Made by a program: the position numbers and the translations under genes | Source: an uncultured Bifidobacteriaceae bacterium | GTDB taxonomy: Bacteria; Verrucomicrobiota; Verrucomicrobiia; Limisphaerales; UBA11358 | NCBI GenBank assembly: GCA_964655855.1 | Contig: CAZZPE010000004.1 | Coordinates: 18,808-82,807, forward strand | Direction of reading: 5' to 3' | DNA: 64,000 nt | Shown: piece by piece, positions 19-63,493 of the stretch | Layout of the letters: each line of letters opens with the position of its first letter | How positions within the stretch are numbered: position 1 is the first letter of the stretch | The notes under the pieces: generated by a model | What the model was told of the DNA's origin: nothing | The model's database searches: none | The model's input: the letters and a program-made list of their open reading frames with translations, nothing else

Positions 19-1431
19 ATGAAGCCAGTTGCCATTTTAAGTTTGCTCGCCGCCAGCGTGCTGGTGTTCGCCGGCTGCCGGGGCGTTCCCGCGCCGGGCG
101 AAAAACAGGCGCGCCGGGATTTCGGCGCGGTCGCCGGTCAATACCGGCCCGGCAACCGCCCGCCGGTTTTGCCGGAGCTGACGCCGGATTCCAGCTTGAG
201 CAATTACCTCGCGTTCGCGCTGCTGAATTCGCCGGCGGTCGCGGCGGCGTATTACGACTGGTCGGCGTCGGTCGAAAACATCACCGTCGCGCGCTCGCTG
301 CCGGACCCGCAAATCACCTTTCAATCGGACATTGCCGACATCGTGACGAGCGTGATGCCGGGTTTCCTGCAACAATTTCCCGGCCCCGGCAAGCTCAAGG
401 CGCGCGCCCGATTCGCCGTGACGGAGAGCGGCGGAAAATACTTCGCGTTTGAAAGCGCGGTGCTGCAAGCAGCGTTCAATCTGAAGCACGCCTATTACCG
501 GCTCGGCCTGCTGGACGAACAGCTTTGCCTCAAGCGCGAGACGCTTTCGTTGCTGGAAAATCAGGAGCGCGTCCTTCGTGTCCAAAACGTCGCGGGCACG
601 GCGTCGCTGCCGGAAACGCTGCGCGTCCAGAGCGAGCTGGATCGCGTCCGCAACGAAATGGCCAATCTCGAAGACTCGCGCCGGCCGCTGCTGGAAAATT
701 TCAAGGCCGCGCTGGGCCTGACGCCGCCGCAGCCCGCTCCGCCGGCACCCGCGCATTTTGAAACGAGCGGCGAAAATCCCGATGCCGAGGAGTTGTTTCG
801 TTTTGCGTTCGCCCACAATCCGCAGCTTGCGGCGATGGAAGCCGATGTGCGCGCCGCCGAGGCCGGCATCGCCGTGGCTTACAAGGAGCGCGTGCCGGAT
901 TTCAGCCTCGGCTTGATGGCCGACGCCAAAACCGCGCCGACGCTGTTCCGGCCGCTGGCGGGCATGACCTTTCCGATCTGGCGCGACAAGCTCGCGGCGG
1001 AAGTTGCGCAGGCCCAGGCGAACGAGCTGGCGGAAAAATCGCGGCTGAAGGCCGGACAGATTGACCTCGCCGTGAATTTCGCCGAAAAATCGTTTGCCTG
1101 CCGTGAAACCGGCCGCAACGTCGCGCTGATTGAAAACCAACTCCTGCCGCAGGCGCGCCAGTCATTGGAAACCGTCCGCGCCGGTTATCGCACCGGCGCG
1201 GTGGATTTTTCCGCCATGACCGACGCAGAACGGGAGCTTTTGGATTTGCAGCTTGAAGCGGTTGAAGCCCGGACCGACCGCGAGATTGCGCTGGCGGAAC
1301 TGTCGCTCATGGTCGCCGGTGTGCCGCCGGCGAACGCACCGCTGTTACCTCGTAGCAGCGGACATGAGTCCGCTCCATCTTCCCGAAATGAAAGTCGGAG
1401 CCGACTTACGTCGGCTGCCACAAAGAATTGA
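19..1431 (+). CDS. TolC-family outer membrane efflux lipoprotein (CusC/CzcC-like)
   Basis: Lipoprotein signal (VLVFAGC), two OEP-like helical repeats, first gene of an operon with MFP and RND genes. The C-terminal ~25 aa derive from a REP doublet. Confidence 0.88.
   Translation: MKPVAILSLLAASVLVFAGCRGVPAPGEKQARRDFGAVAGQYRPGNRPPVLPELTPDSSLSNYLAFALLNSPAVAAAYYDWSASVENITVARSLPDPQITFQSDIADIVTSVMPGFLQQFPGPGKLKARARFAVTESGGKYFAFESAVLQAAFNLKHAYYRLGLLDEQLCLKRETLSLLENQERVLRVQNVAGTASLPETLRVQSELDRVRNEMANLEDSRRPLLENFKAALGLTPPQPAPPAPAHFETSGENPDAEELFRFAFAHNPQLAAMEADVRAAEAGIAVAYKERVPDFSLGLMADAKTAPTLFRPLAGMTFPIWRDKLAAEVAQAQANELAEKSRLKAGQIDLAVNFAEKSFACRETGRNVALIENQLLPQARQSLETVRAGYRTGAVDFSAMTDAERELLDLQLEAVEARTDREIALAELSLMVAGVPPANAPLLPRSSGHESAPSSRNESRSRLTSAATKN
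1352..1421. repeat. GTAG-type REP-like doublet (family A) inside the tolC 3' end
   Basis: GTAGCAGCGGACATGAGTCCGCTC (1352-1375) and inverted GAGCCGACTTACGTCGGCTGCCAC (1398-1421); each unit has a 7-bp stem. Related copies at 34629, 42005 and 52114. Confidence 0.85.
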
Positions 1432-1435
1432 ATTT

Positions 1436-3157
1436 ATGAAAACAAAAATGAAATTGATTTTGGCTGGAACGCTGCTCGTCGCGGCGGTTGGCCTCGGCGT
1501 GTTCGCCGCCGACAACTCCAGCAATTTGGACGCGACCAACTCCGTCGCCACTTCCTCCGGCAAAACGCTTTACACCTGCGGCATGCACCCGTGGATCATC
1601 CAGGATCATCCCGGCAACTGCCCGATTTGCGGCATGAAGCTGGAGCCGGTCCACAAAACCGCCGGCGCTGATGCGGCGACTTCGGCTGACCGCAAAATTC
1701 TGTATTACAAGTCCACGATGATGCCGGGCGAGACCGGCACCAAACCGGGCAAAGACAGCATGGGCATGGACATGGTTCCGGTTGATGCCGGGGAGCCTGC
1801 CGCCGCGAATTCTTCCGTCATCTCGATTGATCCGGCGACGATCCAGTTGATGAACCTCCAGACGACGGAAATCGCGCGCGGCCCGCTGCGCCGGAGCATC
1901 CGCACCGTCGGAACGATTGACTACAACGAAACCGCGCTGGCGGACGTGACGACCAAGTTCAGGGGCTGGATTGAAAAACTGGACGTGGACGCCACGGGCG
2001 AACTCGTGCATCGCGGCGAGCCGCTGTTTGGAATTTATTCACCGGAACTTTACAGCGCCGAGGCGGAGTATCTGGCGGTTCTGAATTCCACGAACGATTC
2101 CGACGCATCGCCGCTGCGCGACGCGGCGCTGGAAAAATTGAAATTCTTCGACATTTCGGATGGACAAATCGCCGCGCTTGAAAAATCCGGCAAGCCGTCC
2201 AGGACACTGGAAATGCTCGCGCCGGCGGACGGGTTTGTCATTGAGAAGGACATCGTGCAGGGCCAGATGGTGGACGCGGGCATGAAACTTTACCAGTTGG
2301 CCGACCTCGGCGTCGTCTGGGTCTTCGCGCAGGTTTACGAGCAGGATTTGCCTTGCGTCCAGCTTGGCCAGGAGGCGACGGTCAAATTGTCATCGCTGCC
2401 GGACCGCGAATTCCGCGGGCGCGTCACCTACATTTATCCGAACGTGGACGAAAAAACGCGGACGGCACGCGTGCGGCTGGAGTTTGAAAATCCCGGTTAT
2501 TTTCTCAAGCCCGGCATGTTCGTCTCGGCGCAAATCACGGCGGAATTGGAACCGTCCGCGCTGCTGGTGCCGGATTCGGCGGTGCTGCGCAGCGGCGAAA
2601 AAAATACGGTGTTCGTCGCGCTGCCCGGCGGCAAATTTGACCCGCGCACGGTCGCGCTCGGCCTGGAATCCGAACATAATTTGTATGAAGTCATCAGCGG
2701 TTTGAACGAGGGCGATCGCGTGGTCACATCCGGGCAGTTCATGCTGGATTCGGAAAGCCAGTTGCGCGAGGCCATCCAGAAAATGAGCGAGCAGGTGGCG
2801 GCGACACCGTCGTCGCCTTCTTCGGCCACAAATCTAACCGCGCAAATTTCTGCCACCAGCGCCGAAAAGGAACCGGTGGTCTACGTCTGTCCGATGCCGG
2901 AGCACGTCTCCATCACCTACGACCATCCGGGCAACTGCCCCATTTGCGGCATGGCGCTGGTGCCGGTGACGCCATCCGAACTCAAACAGCTTCAGCCCGG
3001 CGGCAAGGTGCTTTACTACACCTGCCCGATGCCCGAGCACGCCAGCGTTCACGAAGACAAACCGGGGAAATGTCCGATTTGCGGCATGACTCTCATTCCG
3101 GTGATGGCCGCACCAGATGCGTCCACGAATTCAACGCCGCCGGATGCCGCGAATTAA
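1436..3157 (+). CDS. cusB: RND efflux periplasmic adaptor (CusB-like) with multiple heavy-metal-binding modules
   Basis: Signal peptide; YTCGMHP..CPICGM, YYKSTMMP..MGMDMVP and two C-terminal CPMPEH..CPICGM modules; MFP core (TVALG..GLNEGDRVVTSGQF). Start moved to ATG 1436. Confidence 0.88.
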   Translation: MKTKMKLILAGTLLVAAVGLGVFAADNSSNLDATNSVATSSGKTLYTCGMHPWIIQDHPGNCPICGMKLEPVHKTAGADAATSADRKILYYKSTMMPGETGTKPGKDSMGMDMVPVDAGEPAAANSSVISIDPATIQLMNLQTTEIARGPLRRSIRTVGTIDYNETALADVTTKFRGWIEKLDVDATGELVHRGEPLFGIYSPELYSAEAEYLAVLNSTNDSDASPLRDAALEKLKFFDISDGQIAALEKSGKPSRTLEMLAPADGFVIEKDIVQGQMVDAGMKLYQLADLGVVWVFAQVYEQDLPCVQLGQEATVKLSSLPDREFRGRVTYIYPNVDEKTRTARVRLEFENPGYFLKPGMFVSAQITAELEPSALLVPDSAVLRSGEKNTVFVALPGGKFDPRTVALGLESEHNLYEVISGLNEGDRVVTSGQFMLDSESQLREAIQKMSEQVAATPSSPSSATNLTAQISATSAEKEPVVYVCPMPEHVSITYDHPGNCPICGMALVPVTPSELKQLQPGGKVLYYTCPMPEHASVHEDKPGKCPICGMTLIPVMAAPDASTNSTPPDAAN

Positions 3158-3169
3158 GAAGGAATTTCC

Positions 3170-6100
3170 ATGCTCACGCGCATCATAGATTTTTCGCTCC
3201 GGAACAAGTTCATCGTTCTGCTGGTGACGGTGGTGTTGGTGCTCGGCGGCGTTTACGCGGTGCGCAACATCCCGCTCGACGCCATCCCCGACCTTTCCGA
3301 CACGCAGGTCATCATTTACACGCCGTGGGAAGGCCAGGCGCCGAACATCGTCGAAGACCAGGTCACTTATCCCGTTACGACCAAGATGCTTTCCGTCCCG
3401 CGCGCGAAGGTGGTGCGCGGCTATTCGTTCTACGGCTACTCGTTCGTCTATGTGATTTTTGACGACGGCACCGATCCTTACTGGGCGCGCAGCCGGGTGC
3501 TGGAATACTTGAGCAGCATCAGCGGCCAATTGCCCAAGGGCGTCACGCCGTCGCTCGGCCCGGATGCCACCGGCGTCGGCTGGGCGTTCATGTATTCCAT
3601 CAACTCGACGAACCGCAATCTCGCCGACCTGCGCTCGATTCAGGACTGGTATTTGAAGTATCAACTGACCGCCGTGCAGGGCGTGTCGGAAGTCGCGTCC
3701 ATCGGCGGTTTTGTGAAGCAATACCAGGTGACGGTGGATCCGACGAAGCTCCGCGCCTACAACCTATCGTTGAACGAAGTGAGCCAGGCCATCCAGCGGA
3801 GCAACGGCGAGGTCGGCGGGCGTTCGCTCGAATTATCCGAGCGCGAATTCATCCTGCGCGTGAAGGGCTACATTGAAAATCTCGACGACCTGAAAAAGGT
3901 CGCCGTGGGCGTCGGTGAAAACGGCGTGCCGATTTTGCTGCGCGACGTGGCGAACATCCAGTTCGGCCCGGACATGCGGCGCGGCATCGCCGATTTGAAT
4001 GGCGACGGCGAGACCGTCGGCGGCATCGTCGTCGTGCGTTACGGCGCGAACGCCTCCAAGGTAATCCAGGCCGTGAAACAGCGGCTGGACCAGGCGATGA
4101 AAGCGCTGCCGCCGGACGTGAAAGTCACCGTCACCTACGACCGCACGGCGCTGATTGACCGCGCGGTGGCGACGCTGGAAGAAAAGCTCATCGAAGAAAG
4201 CATCGTCGTCGCGCTCGTGTGCCTCGCGTTCCTGCTGCACCTGCGGAGCGCGCTGGTGGCGATCATCATTTTGCCGGTCGCGGTGCTGATTGCATTCCTC
4301 GTCATGTTCGGGCAGGGCATCAGCTCGAACATCATGTCGCTCGGCGGCATCGCCATCGCCATCGGCGCGATGGTGGACGCGGTCATTATCATGATCGAGA
4401 ACGCCCACCAGCATCTGGAACGCGACCAGGGCAAAAAACCGCACTGGGAAATCATCCGCGACGCGGCCGTCGAAGTCGGACCGGCGCTGTTTTATTCGCT
4501 GCTCGTCATCACCGTTTCGTTCCTGCCGGTGTTCTCGTTGCAGGAACAGGAAGGCCGGCTGTTCAAACCGCTGGCGTTCACCAAGACGTATTCGATGGCG
4601 GCGGCGGCGCTGCTGTCCATCACGCTCGCGCCGGTTCTGATGGGCTGGTTCATCCGCGGAAAAATTCCGAGGGAGGAAAAAAATCCCATCAACCATTTCC
4701 TCATCTGGCTCTACAAGCCGGTGGTGGACCTGGCCATCCGGTATCGCTGGCTGGTGGTGATTTGCGGCGGCATTTTGGTCGGCTGGGTTTTCTTTCCGTG
4801 GAACTCGGTCGTAGCGCGGCTGCTGCCGGATGGCCACGTAAAACAAATGGCCTTCTCCGCCGGCAAGTTGTTCCCGTATCAAAACATCGGCTCGGAATTC
4901 ATGCCGCCGCTTTACGAGGGCGACCTGCTTTACATGCCCACGACCTTTCCGGGCATTTCTCCGACCAAGGCGCGCGAGCTGATTCAAATCACCGACCGCA
5001 TCATCAAATCGTTTCCCGAGGTGGAAACCGTTTTTGGCAAGGCCGGCCGCGCCGAGACCGCCACCGACCCCGCGCCGATGGACATGATTGAAACCACCAT
5101 CCGCCTCAAGCCGGAAGCCGACTGGCCTACCGTGGATATCAAGGACGACGACGGAAAAATCATCGCGCACCGACGACGCACGCCGGATGAATTGACCGGG
5201 GCGATGAACGACGCGGTGCAAATCCCCGGCCTGAATAATGCCTGGACCATGCCCATCGCCACGCGCATTGACATGCTTTCCACCGGCATCAAGACGCCCG
5301 TCGGCATCAAGATTGCCGGGCCGGATCTGGCCACGCTCGAACGCATCGGCATCGAGGTCGAGGCCGTCGTCCGACAGGTGCCCGGCACCGCCAGCGCCTT
5401 CGCCGAACGCGTGACCGGCGGACGCTACATCGAGTTTGAAATTGACCGCGACGCCATCGCGCGCTACGGCCTGACCGTTGGCGACGTGCAGGACGTGCTT
5501 TCAGTGGCGCTTGGCGGCATGCCGCTGACGACGACCGTGGAAGGTCTGCAACGCTACACCATCAACCTGCGTTACGACCGCGATTTCCGTTCCGATCTGG
5601 ATTCGCTCAGGCGCGACATTGTCATTCCCACACCCACCGGAGCGCAAATACCGCTCGGCGAACTCGCCAGCATCAAAGTCGTGGACGGCCCGATGTCCAT
5701 CAAGACCGAAGGCGCCGTGCCAAACGACTGGGTTTATGTGGACATCCACGACGTGGACGTTGGCACCTACGTCCAGAACGCCATGCACACCGTGAACGCC
5801 GCCATCGCCGACGGCCGGATCAAGCTGCCGCCCGGCTACAATCTTTTCTGGAGCGGCCAATACGAATACATGCTGCACGCCAGGGCGCGCCTGTTGATGG
5901 TCGTGCCGCTGACGCTGCTCATCATTTCGCTCATCATCTTCCTGAACACGCGCTCGCTGCTCAAGACCGCCATCGTGCTGCTGGCCGTGCCGTTCTCGCT
6001 GGTCGGCGCGTTCTGGACGCTCTACCTGCTGCACTACAATTTGAGCGTGGCCGTCTGGGTCGGCATCATCGCGCTCGCCGGTCTCGACGCCGAGACCGGC

Positions 6101-58167: not shown

Positions 58168-60696
58168 TTAAAATTGTCGTGTGTAGCCGACGCCGAACTG
58201 GAACTTTCCGGAAGAGCCATTGTATTGATCATGCGTAATGGGAATGCCGTAGTCCAGCCGCAACGGGCCGAGGTGCGGAATATCCAGCCGCAAGCCGATG
58301 CCAGCGTCGTCGTCAAAATAGCCGGAGAAGGAATACGATCCCGCGCCCACCGCGCCGGCGTCATAGAACAGTGCAAAACGCACGCTGGGGCCGTTTTCCT
58401 TTTCGAGAATCGGAATGCTGTATTCCAGCGAACCATACCAGAAACTGTCGCCGCCAATCGGCTCGTTGGGCATCGCCGGATTGTCGCCAAACGCAGGGTC
58501 GCGCGGCGCGATGTTCCGGTATTTGAAGCCGCGCAGCGAGTAAAGTCCGCCAAGATATTCGCGGTCATAAAATGGCACGTCGTCGGAACCCAGCCCGCTG
58601 TCTAAACCGGCGCGTCCGTCCGCCTCCAGCACATGACCCTTGAACAAGCCGGGGAAATACCACGCGGTCTTGGCCTCCAGTTTGTAATAAATCGTGTCAC
58701 CCACGCTCAATTCAGGATCCAGTTCCGTCCGCTGGCCGTGATTCGGCAGTTTATTATTGTTCCGCGTGTCGTAGGCAAGCGAAGCACCGAAACGCTGAAA
58801 CAAATGGTCGCCGGTTTGTTCAAAAATGGCCCCGGGCACATTCGATTGATAGGGGGTTCCCGGTGCCGTGATGCCACCACGACTAAATGGCGGCGGCACG
58901 CCCGGTTGAGGTTGAGCGTCATGCCACCCGCCATTCAGATCAATGCCAACATCCTCGACGGTATAGCTGACGCTGCCGATGAGGAAATCGCTCCCCAGGG
59001 CGCGGGTCAGGCTCAAGCGCGTGCCGGTGCGGGTCTCGTTGTAAATGTTGTTGGGGCTTTCATAATCCATCTCGTGCCGGTAAAGGTCCACGCCCAGCGA
59101 CAGCTTGCGATTCAAAAACCACGGCTCGATGAACGAGAGTTCGTAGTCCTGCCGCTGGGTGCCCAACTGGATGAACAGGCGCAATTTCTGCCCGCCGCCG
59201 GTGAAGTAGGGCGGATGGAACAGGTCGAAATTTCCCTGCGAGATTTCGGCAAACCCGACGAGCGCGTCCACCGAGCTGAAGCCCGCGCCGAGCGTGAACT
59301 TGCCGGTGTCCTTCTCCTCCACGTTCACGTCCAGGTTTTTGCGCCCGGCAATCGGCGGGTCGGTCGGCTCCGGCTGCAAATCCACCTTGTCAAAATAGTC
59401 CAGCCCTTCGAGGCGCTGCTTGCTGGTTTTCACGCGCACCATGTCAAAGACCTCGCCGGGCGCGATGGCCAGCTCCCGGCGGATGACCTTGTCCTTGGTC
59501 TTGATGTTGCCACGGATGTTGATCTGTTCCACATGGGCCTTCTGCCCCTCGTCCACGTGGAATCCCAAATCCATCGTCCCCGTGTCCACGTTCGGAACGC
59601 GGACGGTGTTCAGCGACTGCCCGCGCTGCACGTCAATGTAACCCTGGCTGCCGTAGAAATCCTCGATGGCCGTCATGTCCTTGTTCAAACCGTCGGGCGT
59701 GAAGGTGCTGCCCGTTTTCATCTTGAAATCCGCGTTCAATTTTTTGCTTCTCAACCACGCGGCATCCGCCGGACTACCCTTGGGCTTCGGCTCCGGCCCC
59801 GGTTTGAAGGCGGGGCTGACCGCGTTGGTGGGCAGCAAGGTCGTGCCGCTGAACGTGACCGCCCCCATCTTGTATTGTTTTCCTTCATAAACGAAAAACC
59901 GGAGCAGCAGCATGTTCGGGAACGGATACTCGAACGTCACATCCTTGATGTCAAAATCCAGATAGCCGTGGTTGCGGTAATATTCCGTCAGCGCGTCCTT
60001 GTCGTCGTCAAACTCATCCTTCTTGAACACGCCGCTGCCCGTCAGCCACGAAAACATCCAGTGCGCCCGCGTCTTGATCTGCTTGGCCAACTCCTTCTGC
60101 GGAAACGCCGACGCGCCGATGAACTCGACCCGCAGAATCTTGATCTTCTGGCTTTCGACAACCTGAAACGTGACCGAGGCGCGGCCCGCGGCCTCGTCAA
60201 ACGTGTCAAAAACGTATTTCACCTGCGTGTCGGGATAGCCGTATTTCTCGTAGAGCTTTTTCATCTCCTGCACGTCGGTGAACAATTTCTGCTCGTCCAG
60301 CGGTTCGCCGGTCTTCACCGTGATTTTCTTCTTCAGCTTTGAACTGCTCAAGTCTTTGTTACCCGTGATCTTGATGTCCGTGATCCGCAATCGCGCCTGC
60401 ACGGTGTAGGTCACCACCAGGCCACCGTCGTCCTGCGGATCCACGGAAACACGGATGTTGTTGAACTGGCCGGTGCCGTAAAGCGAATGGATGTCGTCCT
60501 CGGTCAGATTCGGATGGTAGATGTCGCCGGCCTTGAGACGGATGTTGGCACGGACAAACTGCTCGCTGACCGACGCGGGCCCGACATATTTGATGTCCAC
60601 GCGCTCCACTTTCGGCCCGGTGTCCTGCGCCCACGCGAGCTGCGCGCAGCCAAACAGGAGCCATATCCCAAAAAGGCGGGTAAGTAATTTCATCAC
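58168..60696 (-). CDS. bamA: Outer membrane protein assembly factor BamA
   Basis: Signal peptide, POTRA repeats, GNIKTKDKVIRREL, YLGG..SLRGFKYR, C-terminal FQFGVGYTRQF. Confidence 0.95.
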   Translation of the reverse strand: MMKLLTRLFGIWLLFGCAQLAWAQDTGPKVERVDIKYVGPASVSEQFVRANIRLKAGDIYHPNLTEDDIHSLYGTGQFNNIRVSVDPQDDGGLVVTYTVQARLRITDIKITGNKDLSSSKLKKKITVKTGEPLDEQKLFTDVQEMKKLYEKYGYPDTQVKYVFDTFDEAAGRASVTFQVVESQKIKILRVEFIGASAFPQKELAKQIKTRAHWMFSWLTGSGVFKKDEFDDDKDALTEYYRNHGYLDFDIKDVTFEYPFPNMLLLRFFVYEGKQYKMGAVTFSGTTLLPTNAVSPAFKPGPEPKPKGSPADAAWLRSKKLNADFKMKTGSTFTPDGLNKDMTAIEDFYGSQGYIDVQRGQSLNTVRVPNVDTGTMDLGFHVDEGQKAHVEQINIRGNIKTKDKVIRRELAIAPGEVFDMVRVKTSKQRLEGLDYFDKVDLQPEPTDPPIAGRKNLDVNVEEKDTGKFTLGAGFSSVDALVGFAEISQGNFDLFHPPYFTGGGQKLRLFIQLGTQRQDYELSFIEPWFLNRKLSLGVDLYRHEMDYESPNNIYNETRTGTRLSLTRALGSDFLIGSVSYTVEDVGIDLNGGWHDAQPQPGVPPPFSRGGITAPGTPYQSNVPGAIFEQTGDHLFQRFGASLAYDTRNNNKLPNHGQRTELDPELSVGDTIYYKLEAKTAWYFPGLFKGHVLEADGRAGLDSGLGSDDVPFYDREYLGGLYSLRGFKYRNIAPRDPAFGDNPAMPNEPIGGDSFWYGSLEYSIPILEKENGPSVRFALFYDAGAVGAGSYSFSGYFDDDAGIGLRLDIPHLGPLRLDYGIPITHDQYNGSSGKFQFGVGYTRQF

Positions 60697-62166
60697 CTAT
60701 CGCTCCATTGGCACGTCTTCATCGCTGACTTTGGCTGCGCTTTCAAATCGCGTGTAAGATTTCAAGAATGTCAAGTTCACGTCGCCCGTCGGGCCGTTGC
60801 GCTGTTTCGCAATCAGCAGGTTGACCGGCATGCCGTCCGCTTCTTCCATGTTTCCGTCGTCGTCCTCGCCCGCGCTCGGCTTATACAGCAGTCCCACCAG
60901 GTCGGCGTCCTGTTCAATCGCGCCGGACTCGCGCAGGTCGCTCAACCGCGGCTTGCGGCTCTTGTCCCGCTCCAGCTCGCGGTTCAACTGCGAAAGCACC
61001 AGCACCGGCACCTTCAATTCCTTCGCCAGCGCCTTGAGGCCGCTGGAAATATCCGAGATTTCCTGCTGCCGGTTTTCCTGCGAACGCCGCGCAGTAGAAT
61101 GCAGCAACTGCAAATAGTCAACCACGAAAAGCTTCACGCCGTGCATCTGGTGCAGCCGCCGCGCCCGCGCCCGCAACTGCAAAATCGAAAGCCCCGCCGA
61201 ATCGTCAATGAACAGTTTCGAGTTCGCCAGCCTCCCCGCCGCGTTCGTTAACTTCGGAAAATCCGCCTCGCTCATGAAGCCCTCGCGGATGCTCCGCAGG
61301 TTCACCCGCGCGATCGAGCACATCATGCGCATCACCAGCGCCTCCGCGCTCATTTCCAGGCTGAACACCGCCGCCGGCAATTTTTGCTCCAGCACGACAT
61401 TCTCCACGATGTTCATCGCCAGCGACGTTTTTCCCATCGAGGGCCGCGCCGCGATGACGACCATTTCGCTGCCGTGCAAACCGTCCGTCATCCGGTCCAG
61501 GTCCGCATAGCCCGTTCCCAACCCCGTGAGCGCGCCCTTGCGGCTGAAAAAATTCTCGATCGTCCCGATGGCCTTGCCGACCAGCTCCTTGGTCGTCAGC
61601 GAATCGCTTTGCGCGCGCGACTCGCTGATCCGCAGCACGTCGCGCTCCACCTCGTCCATCAGCGCGTCCACATCGCCCTCGTAATCATAAACCCGCCCCA
61701 CCACCTCCGTGCAGGTCTGGATCATTTTCCGCAGCAGGAACTTCTCCTTCACGATGTCGAGGTAATAGCTCAGGTTCGCCGCACTCGGCACCGCGTCCTG
61801 AAGCTGCGACAGATAAGCGATGCCGCCGACCTGATCCAGAAGCTGCTTGTCCTTGAGCCGCTGCTGGACGGTGATGACGTCAATCGCCTCGCGCGTGTTG
61901 AACATCGCGGCCAGCGTCTCGTAAATCGTCTGATGCCGCAGGTCGTAGAAAACCTCCTGACCGTTGTCCTTCAATTTCTCGATGCACTCGCCCAGGCATT
62001 CGTTCGGCGAGAGCAGCGCGCAGCCGAGCACCCCCTGCTCCGCCTCCGGCGAATGCGGCGGCAGCCGGTCCAGTTTGACGGGGTCGGATGCGGAAACATT
62101 TTTGCGGCGGCGCGCCTTCTTCAAATCCGCCGCGGCACCGGCGGCTTCGGAAACGGAATCAATCAT
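60697..62166 (-). CDS. dnaB: Replicative DNA helicase
   Basis: PPHSPEAEQGVLG, AARPSMGKT, DYLQL, PRLSDLRESGAIEQDAD; 489 aa. Confidence 0.97.
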   Translation of the reverse strand: MIDSVSEAAGAAADLKKARRRKNVSASDPVKLDRLPPHSPEAEQGVLGCALLSPNECLGECIEKLKDNGQEVFYDLRHQTIYETLAAMFNTREAIDVITVQQRLKDKQLLDQVGGIAYLSQLQDAVPSAANLSYYLDIVKEKFLLRKMIQTCTEVVGRVYDYEGDVDALMDEVERDVLRISESRAQSDSLTTKELVGKAIGTIENFFSRKGALTGLGTGYADLDRMTDGLHGSEMVVIAARPSMGKTSLAMNIVENVVLEQKLPAAVFSLEMSAEALVMRMMCSIARVNLRSIREGFMSEADFPKLTNAAGRLANSKLFIDDSAGLSILQLRARARRLHQMHGVKLFVVDYLQLLHSTARRSQENRQQEISDISSGLKALAKELKVPVLVLSQLNRELERDKSRKPRLSDLRESGAIEQDADLVGLLYKPSAGEDDDGNMEEADGMPVNLLIAKQRNGPTGDVNLTFLKSYTRFESAAKVSDEDVPMER

Positions 62167-62251
62167 ACGAATAGAATCGCCGCTGGCATTTCGGCGGCAA
62201 GACAAAGTTGTTTTTCTTGTTACCAAATTATTCGCCGCGCGATTTCAGGCT

Positions 62252-62317
62252 TCATCCGTCCCACTCGCCGGTCTGGAGATACGGCTTGAGCTTTTCCTTG
62301 AGCGTTTCGCGACCGCG
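62252..62317 (-). repeat. Duplicated 3' end of the ECF sigma gene (distal direct repeat)
   Basis: 62261-62311 is identical to 62900-62950 (51 bp), extending to 57 bp with one mismatch; reads RGRETLKEKLKPYLQTGEWDG-stop. Confidence 0.92.
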
Positions 62318-62321
62318 CTTT

Positions 62322-62615
62322 CTAAACGCGGCTTTTCCAATAACCCGGACGCCGTTTCATGTGCATCACCGCCAAAATCCAGATGCGGTCTGGCTGCTCG
62401 ACGTAAACCACCGCATACGGAAAGACGGTTGAGAAATGCCGTTGCGCAGGCGGGTCAAAATGGCGGAAGCGTTTCGGATTGCGGCGGACATCTTGAACGA
62501 GCCGCTCCATCTCGTCGTAAAAACGTCCGCCGAGTTCGAGAGAAACATGCGCGTAGTAATTTGCGGTGTCCGCATATTCCGCCGCCGCTTCGGGATGGAA
62601 GGCGTGCGGTTTCAC
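62322..62615 (-). CDS. RelE/ParE-family type II toxin
   Basis: FHPEAAAEY..YY..LG.RF..E, FPYAVVY..IWILAVMH.KRRPGYW; overlaps the antitoxin stop. Confidence 0.88.
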   Translation of the reverse strand: MKPHAFHPEAAAEYADTANYYAHVSLELGGRFYDEMERLVQDVRRNPKRFRHFDPPAQRHFSTVFPYAVVYVEQPDRIWILAVMHMKRRPGYWKSRV

Positions 62616-62845
62616 CGCCCGACGATTTTGCGGATGCGGCTGCTGACAACTTCACCGGGGACGGCTTGCACCTTGCCGCTTTCCAATTCGGCCAGACGGC
62701 GACGCGTTTCCTGTTTCCAAGCGAATTCAATTTCCGGCTCAACATCGGCGTGCAATCCAGAGGTGAGGCGATCCACAACCTCCGCCACCTGCTCGCGCGG
62801 CAATTGGCTCGCTTCTTCGACGATTTGATCCAACGTCATCGGCAT
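62612..62845 (-). CDS. Addiction-module antitoxin (TIGR02574-like)
   Basis: 77 aa; L.LP.E....V..L, AW..E..RR..E..SG.V..VPGE pattern; directly upstream of the toxin. Confidence 0.85.
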   Translation of the reverse strand: MPMTLDQIVEEASQLPREQVAEVVDRLTSGLHADVEPEIEFAWKQETRRRLAELESGKVQAVPGEVVSSRIRKIVGR

Positions 62846-62890
62846 GGTTTGAAACTACGCCCTGTTATTGTCCGGCGCAATCGGGAAATT

Positions 62891-63493
62891 TCATTCCGTC
62901 CACTCGCCGGTCTGGAGATACGGCTTGAGCTTTTCCTTGAGCGTTTCGCGGCCGCGATGGATGAGCGATTTGGTGGCGGAGAGCGAGCAGTCCAAAACCC
63001 CGGCAATTTCCTCGTAGCTCAATTCGTCCTGCCGGCAGAGCAAAATGGCGGCGCGCTGGTTTTCCGGCAGCCCGGCGAGCGCCTCCTCGATTTTCCGCGC
63101 CAGCTCGCCTTGCAGCAGTTGTTCCGGCGGGGCCATCTGCGATTTGTCCTCGTATTGCCGGTGCGGCTGGTCCTCGTGTTCGGCGTGCTCTTCCTCGATG
63201 GACTCGGCAGGATGGCGCGAACGGCGGCGGATTTCGTTCAGGCACAGATTCCGCGCGATGGTGAAAAGCCAGGTGGAAAACTTCGCGGTCTGCCGGTAGC
63301 GGCCGCGCGATTTCCAGGCCTGGAGAAAAACATTTTGCGCCAGGTCCTCGGACTCCGCCTCGTCGCGCAGCGAGCGGTGGATGAAGTTCATCACGGGCTG
63401 CTTGTATTTGTCCACCAGCCCGGCAAAAGCCGCGCGGTCGCCGCGCCGGGCGCGGAGCATCAGCGCGGCATCGGGATCGGTTTGGGCTGGCAT
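62891..63493 (-). CDS. ECF RNA polymerase sigma factor (SigW/RpoE-like)
   Basis: D..LMLRA..GD..AF..LV, EDLAQNVFL, FSTWLFTIARN, LSYEEIA..L..S..ATKSLIHRGR. Confidence 0.93.
   Translation of the reverse strand: MPAQTDPDAALMLRARRGDRAAFAGLVDKYKQPVMNFIHRSLRDEAESEDLAQNVFLQAWKSRGRYRQTAKFSTWLFTIARNLCLNEIRRRSRHPAESIEEEHAEHEDQPHRQYEDKSQMAPPEQLLQGELARKIEEALAGLPENQRAAILLCRQDELSYEEIAGVLDCSLSATKSLIHRGRETLKEKLKPYLQTGEWTE

Follow-up and report, generated by a model that had tools for sequence, protein, structure and literature searches.

A toxin-antitoxin unit inserted behind a sigma-factor gene at a Limisphaerales hotspot, possibly by insertion with long target duplication

By what route toxin-antitoxin pairs, restriction-modification genes and other small genes of a selfish or accessory kind reach a chromosome in the absence of a mobile element is a long-standing question, and the locus analysed here raises it in compact form. 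It lies in a 64-kb stretch of DNA (64,000 nucleotides of contig CAZZPE010000004.1; hereafter the window, meaning the whole stretch that was analysed) from an uncultured Verrucomicrobium of a peat or wetland metagenome, where a 639-bp unit with a toxin-antitoxin pair sits between two copies of the 3' end of a sigma-factor gene. Is this duplicated gene end the attachment (att) site of an integrative element, as an initial annotation of the sequence had supposed, or does it record another kind of event?

The target gene encodes an extracytoplasmic function (ECF)-type sigma-70 factor of 200 amino acids (62891-63493, minus strand; Pfam Sigma70_r2, r4_2 and ECF, NCBIfam sigma70-ECF), with more than 7500 homologues; its orthologues, at 78-100% identity, keep glnD as a neighbour. 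The functional 3' end of the gene, comprising the last 21 codons plus the stop, terminates in GEWTE-stop (copy B, 62891-62956, minus strand), and is repeated at 62252-62317 (copy A, minus strand) as an orphan that terminates in GEWDG-stop and has no open reading frame (ORF) start attached. The two copies are separated by 639 nt, start to start, and are identical at 61/66 positions including the last two codons and the stop, at 56/57 positions from CGCGG through the Trp codon, and throughout an exact core of 51 nt (62261-62311 = 62900-62950). A search of the window with this 51-mer, allowing up to three mismatches, retrieved only copies A and B, with none expected from 100 shuffles, and no further long near-identical direct repeats were found in the 64 kb. 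The re-computed alignment confirms what the initial annotation had described, a duplication of the last ~21 sigma codons with 51 bp identical and 57 bp with one mismatch, and both termini were as it had stated. The inner edge of the duplicated segment coincides with a palindrome, TCGCGGCCGCGA (62946-62957, no strand), which is a recurrent breakpoint in relatives.

Two related loci show the site in its empty state. In L085 and L005, with sigma identities of 92% and 89%, the sigma gene is followed directly by dnaB after a gap of 86-88 nt, and there is a single copy of the target, which in L085 is identical to the repeat copies of the window at 61/66 and 59/66 positions. The orphan copy and the whole dnaB-side flank of the window are collinear with both relatives; this flank comprises the native sigma-dnaB intergenic region (62167-62251, minus strand), which aligns with the 86-88 nt of the empty sites, then dnaB (60697-62166, minus strand; 489 amino acids from the ATG at 62166; Pfam DnaB and DnaB_C) and downstream of it bamA (58168-60696, a gene call). 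The attached copy, instead, enters a 45-nt leader. Judged from these comparisons, the empty sites identify the toxin-antitoxin unit as an insertion, in support of the initial annotation, and the collinearity of the orphan and right flank with them indicates that the DG end is the old native end of the sigma gene. Likewise, D-G is the genuine sigma terminus in P0014/L164, and the attached tail ACGGAATGA, with T-E-stop and then AATTTC..., is linked to the unit in L019, L084, L090 and L096.

Every lineage with a sigma identity of at least 94% carries the insert, indicating that the event is old and fixed in the clade. In the clade of the window the insert thus appears to be old, fixed and, to judge from RNA contig depth, transcribed; nothing points to continuing excision, which according to the initial annotation would restore the WDG terminus. 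The intergenic sequence GAAATTGCGCCGGCGAATAA behind sigma in L005 (4960-5049), L085 (4539-4626) and L016 (~5603-5650) resembles the leader of the unit, CGATTGCGCCGGACAATAA; the sites now empty may thus have been occupied before and be scarred, instead of being naive. Separately, in L084 and L171/L172, which belong to lineages of 94-95% identity, the sigma gene is preceded not by glnD but by a MauE-domain gene and two unknown ORFs, so that the other flank of sigma has also been rearranged in close relatives.

The duplication is seen well beyond a single assembly. An identical sigma protein was present on 14 contigs from independent ENA and JGI assemblies, with the same layout in the contexts that were read, and alleles at 98%, 95% and 94% identity share this layout. 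In DNA run X1, the unitig between the repeats had a depth of 31 against 27-36 in the flanks, and depth was doubled over the repeat; the strain variants in runs X11 and X13 likewise carry the cassette. That the structure is an assembly artefact or a chance repeat, a reading favoured by the metagenomic origin of the data and by nothing further, is scarcely credible in view of these independent contigs, of the occurrence of the same kind of structure on long contigs of up to 4.6 Mb, of the absence of expected chance matches, and of a depth profile that fits a real duplication. The sequencing runs were available as contigs assembled at k=31, which cannot bridge an exact repeat of 51 nt, and within this limit DNA depth gave no hint of a subpopulation with an empty site. 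In RNA run X7, a 669-nt contig closes on itself over the 51-nt repeat (joint 62899->62261, going back 639); we do not take it as evidence of an excised circle, because such closure is expected of a k=31 graph whose interior is much deeper than its flanks. We also observed that several contigs with this Verrucomicrobial sigma gene (L026, L038, L049, L069, L082 and L083) are filed under genome bins of Bifidobacteriaceae, Aquilonibacter, Acidoferrum or Methylacidimicrobium, probably through errors of binning or labelling.

Between the repeats lie solely an antitoxin and a RelE/ParE toxin, as the initial annotation had read them, and both genes are typed by Pfam. The antitoxin gene (62612-62845, minus strand; 77 amino acids) matches PF09720 Unstab_antitox (45.6 bits, E=7e-12) and TIGR02574, and the toxin gene of the RelE/ParE superfamily (62322-62615, minus strand; 97 amino acids) matches PF05016 (29.6 bits, cut-off 23) and begins with a GTG that overlaps the antitoxin stop, the two genes sharing 4 nt. 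Gene order, with the antitoxin first, overlap and family scores all match, and on this sequence evidence the cargo is a type II toxin-antitoxin module of the RelE/ParE superfamily. The toxin has 452 homologues, several of which are called ParE in their source records, and a structure search with it found no close solved relative. Both genes have a lower GC content at third codon positions (GC3; 0.63-0.65, with 0.63 for the toxin) than the neighbouring core genes (0.77-0.82). The toxin stop is joined to the orphan repeat by just 4 nt, AAAG (62318-62321, minus strand), and not by the 5 bp given in the initial annotation. In the strain variants of peat runs X11 and X13, a tandem duplication inserts 12 nt, CTTCGGGATGGA, at 62587 and adds four residues near the toxin N-terminus, and a G replaces the A at 62312, removing the sole mismatch between the repeat copies.

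The 45-nt leader, AATTTCCCGATTGCGCCGGACAATAACAGGGCGTAGTTTCAAACC (62846-62890, minus strand), is homologous to 51 nt preceding the antitoxin in L173, and probably holds a promoter or operator of the unit's own; a scan of 62100-63000 for consensus promoters and terminators found nothing useful in the leader. In three RNA runs the contig depth of the unit was five to eight times that of sigma and dnaB (27.5 against 3-5 in X7, 12 against 3 in X8 and 10.6 against 2.3 in X12), figures that are indicative only, contig depth being a poor measure of expression, and one RNA contig (X9) extends out of the unit, across the orphan copy, to the leader of dnaB. Because of this higher RNA contig depth and the X9 contig, the toxin-antitoxin operon seems to have its own promoter and may be read through into the dnaB-bamA operon.

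The site has been used repeatedly in related bacteria. With a profile of the sigma 3' end, we scanned 163 loci, made up of 160 related loci fetched by means of the sigma protein and three copies of the locus of the window; gene calls in the related loci used a GC3 filter and are approximate, and the independence of events was judged from differing cargo and boundaries, not from phylogeny. Two to five sigma-end copies (one to four of them extra) were present in 29/163 loci, or 26/151 distinct junctions, with all the extra copies on the same strand and downstream of sigma, at spacings of 182-3263 nt. The intervals between copies hold at least eight unrelated cargos: the ParE toxin-antitoxin pair, a PIN_3+DUF6364 pair on the opposite strand, a PIN_3+MazE pair, a prepilin-type N_methyl/DUF1559 protein, a Calx-beta protein of 800-1600 amino acids, an alpha-L-fucosidase, a DJ-1/PfpI protein, and gene-less units with ~130 or 200 nt between copies. 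Their order varies by genome and they can be stacked, as in L048, where fucosidase, DUF1559 protein, PIN pair and ParE pair follow one another. On its far side, this variable interval is anchored in most lineages by a polyprenyl synthetase gene in convergent orientation, and in the clade of the window by dnaB, with bamA behind it. Relatives thus hold differing cargo at the same place instead of one invariant arrangement, in line with the insertion read by the initial annotation; its suggestion that the unit might be the remnant of a larger island was not borne out, since none of the 163 loci shows a larger island at the site.

Other features were seen within the hotspot. In L020 (~1200-3000), the sigma stop has been lost (TGG for TGA) and the ORF continues into a DUF1559 cassette gene, giving a fusion of 607 amino acids. 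A REP-like (repetitive extragenic palindromic) element of ~30 nt, CAAAGATGCCGCGCCGACGGCGCTCCGAAA, is scattered over the hotspot in either orientation, for instance after the toxin stop in L024/L157/L161, before extra copies in L019 and L035, and at 5910-6463 in L041, and there are other GC-rich hairpins, GGAGGGCGGAGCGCTGCGACGCCCT; it is possible that these elements and hairpins are sites of breakage or of gyrase action.

The limits of the sigma-end copies are clustered. The 29 extra copies that are distinct have their inner boundary at the palindrome TCGCGGCCGCGA, 0-16 nt (mode 5-7) to the left of GCGAAAC, except that in one family it extends further; boundaries differ by up to ~28 nt between families. 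The outer boundary ranges from the Trp codon to 4 nt beyond the stop, giving repeats of 59-75 nt including the stop (50-66 nt to the Trp codon), and cargo ORFs often begin or end a few bases from it, with some start codons overlapping the sigma stop. Copies within one genome have lineage-specific codons in common. Orphan copies, in turn, decay like neutral DNA: those of L084 and L171 have a 1-nt deletion and are 89% identical to the sigma copy, and orphan tails differ among close relatives. The orphan of the window is unusually fresh at 56/57, which implies gene conversion or later recombination. Sliding identity against relatives, used as a test for a mosaic sigma gene, did not help to decide, since with every relative the 3' end proved the more conserved part.

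Relatives of the toxin, traced to their contigs, revealed the same pattern at other genes. In L174 and L182-184, the pair is convergent with a polyprenyl synthetase gene, its toxin stop lies 1-2 nt from the stop of that gene, and a copy of the polyprenyl synthetase 3' end, of 101-115 nt (at least 65 nt in L182), follows beyond the pair. In L173, the pair follows a PfkB-like ORF, with a leader of 51 nt, and the last ten codons plus the stop of this ORF (33 nt) are repeated after the toxin. A distant toxin-antitoxin pair in L075 is bracketed by 82 nt of the end of a gene for 1115 amino acids, and in L087, L113 and L137 a gene for 90 amino acids has on both sides 58-86 nt from the end of the polyprenyl synthetase gene (58 nt in L137, 79-86 nt in L087/L113). 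Several further units are bracketed by duplicated intergenic DNA of 32-137 nt. Duplicate lengths over genes range from 33 to 115 nt, the duplicated gene ends have no sequence in common, and the ParE toxin-antitoxin unit is found in both orientations. The flanking duplicates are target-derived, variable in length and formed in either orientation of the cargo; their local origin and variable length indicate that the cassette carries no fixed att. A model in which the cassette brings each copy with it, as an att with a fixed crossover, was dropped once the duplicates at other genes had been found. A comparison of empty and occupied polyprenyl synthetase sites (L107 against L113) gave no clean result, as the outer flanks differ. 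In L186 and L189, a relative of the toxin-antitoxin pair has no flanking duplicate; it belongs to an island densely packed with addiction modules (Fic/VbhA, a Zeta-toxin fragment, BrnT/CopG and DUF433).

Searches with phmmer, using XerD, the C-terminal domain of lambda Int and gamma-delta resolvase as the three queries and thus of limited sensitivity, detected no tyrosine or serine recombinase among the six-frame ORFs of the window or of the 5 kb downstream in the 163 loci. The insert, with its two typed genes, is thus integrase-free as the initial annotation had called it, and within these loci no integrase was found cis-linked to the repeat. The one tyrosine integrase encountered, in L022 (PF00589, 517-1986), was set aside as unrelated to the repeat: it lies beside a tRNA-Gly(CCC), beyond glnD and ~3 kb from sigma, and belongs to an ordinary tRNA-linked island. 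Likewise, no IntI-type integrase accompanies the array, with glnD upstream and no recombinase in the loci; this is not decisive alone, because clusters of attC sites lacking integron-integrases (CALINs) lack one by definition. Folding of both strands of both copies was no better than that of shuffles (z +0.26 to +1.06) and not attC-like, an Rfam search with the repeat gave no match, the repeat was absent from IMG/VR viral contigs and the whole unit was absent from plasmid and phage collections. The ends of 16 units showed no terminal inverted repeats or shared end motifs which, with duplicates of variable length (32-137 nt), leaves the hallmarks of DDE transposons and miniature elements absent. 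Nor does the same att core accompany the toxin-antitoxin family wherever it occurs, its flanks being the ends of the polyprenyl synthetase, the PfkB-like ORF and the gene for 1115 amino acids.

The best explanation that we can offer, which we hold with about as much belief as doubt, is that the 639-bp unit entered by insertion with long target duplication, in a recombinase-independent, repair-type event, and not by dedicated att integration. We infer a course of break, donor copying and end joining. The chromosome would have broken at the palindrome, within the ~60 nt that close the sigma gene; the sigma-side end would have paired with the DNA of a relative that already had the toxin-antitoxin pair immediately behind its sigma gene, and would have copied from it the donor gene end (T-E-stop), the 45-nt leader and both genes, before being rejoined to the other broken end, which still bore the resident D-G-stop end and the dnaB promoter region. 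This would leave the sigma gene intact, followed by the cargo and by its former 3' end as an orphan copy. Ordinary homologous recombination, for which the conserved sigma gene and the repeat would provide the arms, could later spread the repeat-cargo-repeat module to relatives, stack modules into arrays and homogenise the repeat copies, and the toxin-antitoxin pair would resist loss through addiction, which fits its fixation in the clade and its apparent transcription above its neighbours. Such a course would explain the rebuilt T-E end, the native D-G orphan and the missing recombinase genes, and also why repeat lengths vary and why both conserved anchors of the hotspot are used.

Several observations weigh against this repair-type course. 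Four other contexts of the same toxin-antitoxin family have no flanking duplicate. The inner boundary falls within ~16 nt at one palindrome across several unrelated cargo families, a precision that would also be expected from a site-specific enzyme, and cargos abut the repeats within 0-5 nt of stop codons, a fit not expected from simple break repair. The repair-type course does not explain why breakpoints cluster at sigma, why cargo and repeat fit so tightly, or how a cargo first arrived behind the stop codon, and the case for a site-specific enzyme acting in trans rests mainly on these points. Under this alternative, the last ~66 nt of sigma would be a true att, served by a tyrosine or serine recombinase whose gene lies elsewhere in the genome; this enzyme would insert small recombinase-less cassettes, stack them and perhaps excise them. 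Parallels are known in the pseudo-SCC elements at rlmH, in cis-mobilizable elements and in Xer-dependent elements. The use of one site by at least eight unrelated cargos, in arrays of up to four and in varying order, speaks for it, as do the clustering of the inner boundary and the arrival of cargo with a replacement gene end, as with integrative elements. We nevertheless regard it as a secondary, if serious, possibility: no cis recombinase was found by the three phmmer queries in the window and the 163 loci, members of the same toxin-antitoxin family occur in both orientations between duplicates that derive from other genes and have other lengths, boundaries shift between families and orphan copies are not conserved, and the copies look like the resident sigma allele and not like a site brought in by a cassette. 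Of the minimal cassette mobilised in trans that the initial annotation had proposed, the insertion of a cassette without integrase therefore stands, and mobilisation through an att is retained only as this rival reading, because duplicates are target-derived at several genes. The same holds for its unusual protein-coding attachment site: the insertion is at the sigma end, but the ends of other genes are duplicated too, which argues against a dedicated att served by an integrase.

Two further routes were considered. A small circle with the cargo and one sigma end, released from the array of a relative by recombination between its repeats, might have recombined with the resident sigma end in a RecA-dependent integration of Campbell type. 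All relatives offer near-identical homology over 75-100 nt, the difference between the tails of the two copies is what a single crossover would give, and the locus shows evidence of recombination and gene conversion; we still consider this route unlikely, because it accounts for the arrival of this copy and not for the origin of the first module, it cannot create new gene-cargo combinations (polyprenyl synthetase, PfkB), and it requires the uptake or transfer of an intact double-stranded circle, of which none was seen, the sole circular contig being the k=31 graph closure. Even less probable, and in our view very much so, are non-autonomous transposable units moved by a transposase with widely staggered cuts. 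Long, variable and target-derived duplicates at several genes agree with such units, IS1634-type elements do give long, variable direct repeats (PMC2266710), and the ParE toxin-antitoxin unit has similar ends in three contexts. However, the units lack terminal inverted repeats and shared end motifs, the cargos are unrelated in sequence, and no transposase lies nearby apart from an unrelated insertion sequence in L175. Moreover, pure target-site duplication by staggered cuts fits poorly, since the last codons of the attached copy differ from those of the orphan in the window, L035, L039 and L173.

More speculatively, the sigma 3' end might serve as the primary capture site in a cassette platform of the Limisphaerales that resembles integrons and is so far undescribed, where an unlinked recombinase or a restriction-type nuclease would cut at TCGCGGCCGCGA. 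Cassettes (toxin-antitoxin, fucosidase, DJ-1, pseudopilin-like) would then go directly behind the stop, to be co-transcribed with sigma, stacked and reshuffled, with the gene end rebuilt each time. We find this platform doubtful.

Insertion with long target duplication has precedents among complexes of restriction-modification genes (Nobusato et al. 2000, Gene 259:99; Furuta, Abe and Kobayashi 2010, PMC2853133). In those cases, the duplicates exceed 30 bp, vary in length and often overlap the 3' end of a gene, the insert contains no mobile element, and the mechanism is unsolved, with a double-strand break suspected (PMC2853133). The window resembles this class in having a selfish, addiction-type unit that is absent from related genomes with a single target copy (L085 and L005), in its flanking duplicate of more than 30 bp (here 66 nt), of variable length between events, and in the lack of any integrase, transposase or mobile element in the insert. 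It differs in that the cargo is a toxin-antitoxin pair, or other small genes in relatives, with no evident cargo-encoded DNA endonuclease, and in that events are concentrated at a single hotspot, where arrays can reach four units and the inner breakpoint recurs at a palindrome. Among the papers of the searched library that use the phrase "insertion with long target duplication", we found no report for classical toxin-antitoxin pairs; by analogy, the insert of the window would extend the class to a cargo type other than restriction-modification.

Other known systems share some features with this locus. Pseudo-SCC (staphylococcal cassette chromosome) and composite islands at rlmH/orfX (PMC4723332) and the cis-mobilizable elements at fda (PMC5704250) also use the 3' end of a protein gene, with a downstream region split by direct repeats, variable gene content and some units without recombinase. 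However, their repeats are short (~15 bp), fixed and cut by a known Ccr or Int, whereas the repeats here are of 50-75 nt and decay freely, and the same cargo occurs with different repeats at other genes. Like integron arrays and CALINs (PMC4889954), the hotspot consists of compact, mostly single-operon cassettes that are rich in toxin-antitoxin pairs, have no mobility genes of their own and are separated by a recurring sequence of 60-100 nt; unlike in integrons, there is no IntI here, the recurring sequence is the end of the neighbouring gene instead of an attC hairpin, and cargo occurs in both orientations. Tycheposons at tRNA genes (bioRxiv 10.1101/2020.12.28.424599) and the ssrA islands of Dehalococcoides (PMC3146451) are similar in their repeated insertion at one gene end, with older units pushed outward and partial gene copies scattered through the island, but they carry integrases or recognisable remnants and have fixed att cores. 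Finally, the hotspots of transfer between core genes (PMC5635113) are likewise short intervals of rapid gene turnover without recognisable mobile elements, whose flanks show signs of homologous recombination, the anchors here being sigma and either polyprenyl synthetase or dnaB; as far as that source is covered here, it does not describe copies of core-gene ends on both sides of each unit.

A duplicated gene end beside an insert is thus not automatically the attachment site of an integrase. Insertion with long target duplication was reportedly described in 2000 from a handful of cases, and we know of no mechanism that has been given for it since then. The locus offers dozens of natural, independent events in one short interval (26 distinct junctions and at least eight cargo types), and because empty sites, single inserts and arrays can be compared at one place, with a recurrent palindrome breakpoint, the mechanism becomes directly testable. 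For the window itself the message is more modest, namely what appears to be an old, fixed and, from RNA contig depth, expressed toxin-antitoxin operon between the sigma gene and the dnaB-bamA operon.

Elsewhere in the window, a 41-nt motif beginning CCGGGCAACTGCCCGATTTGCGGCATG occurs three times in one ORF (1610-1650, 2927-2967 and 3062-3102); this ORF adjoins an efflux pump gene, and the motifs look like repeated Cys-rich metal-binding motifs.

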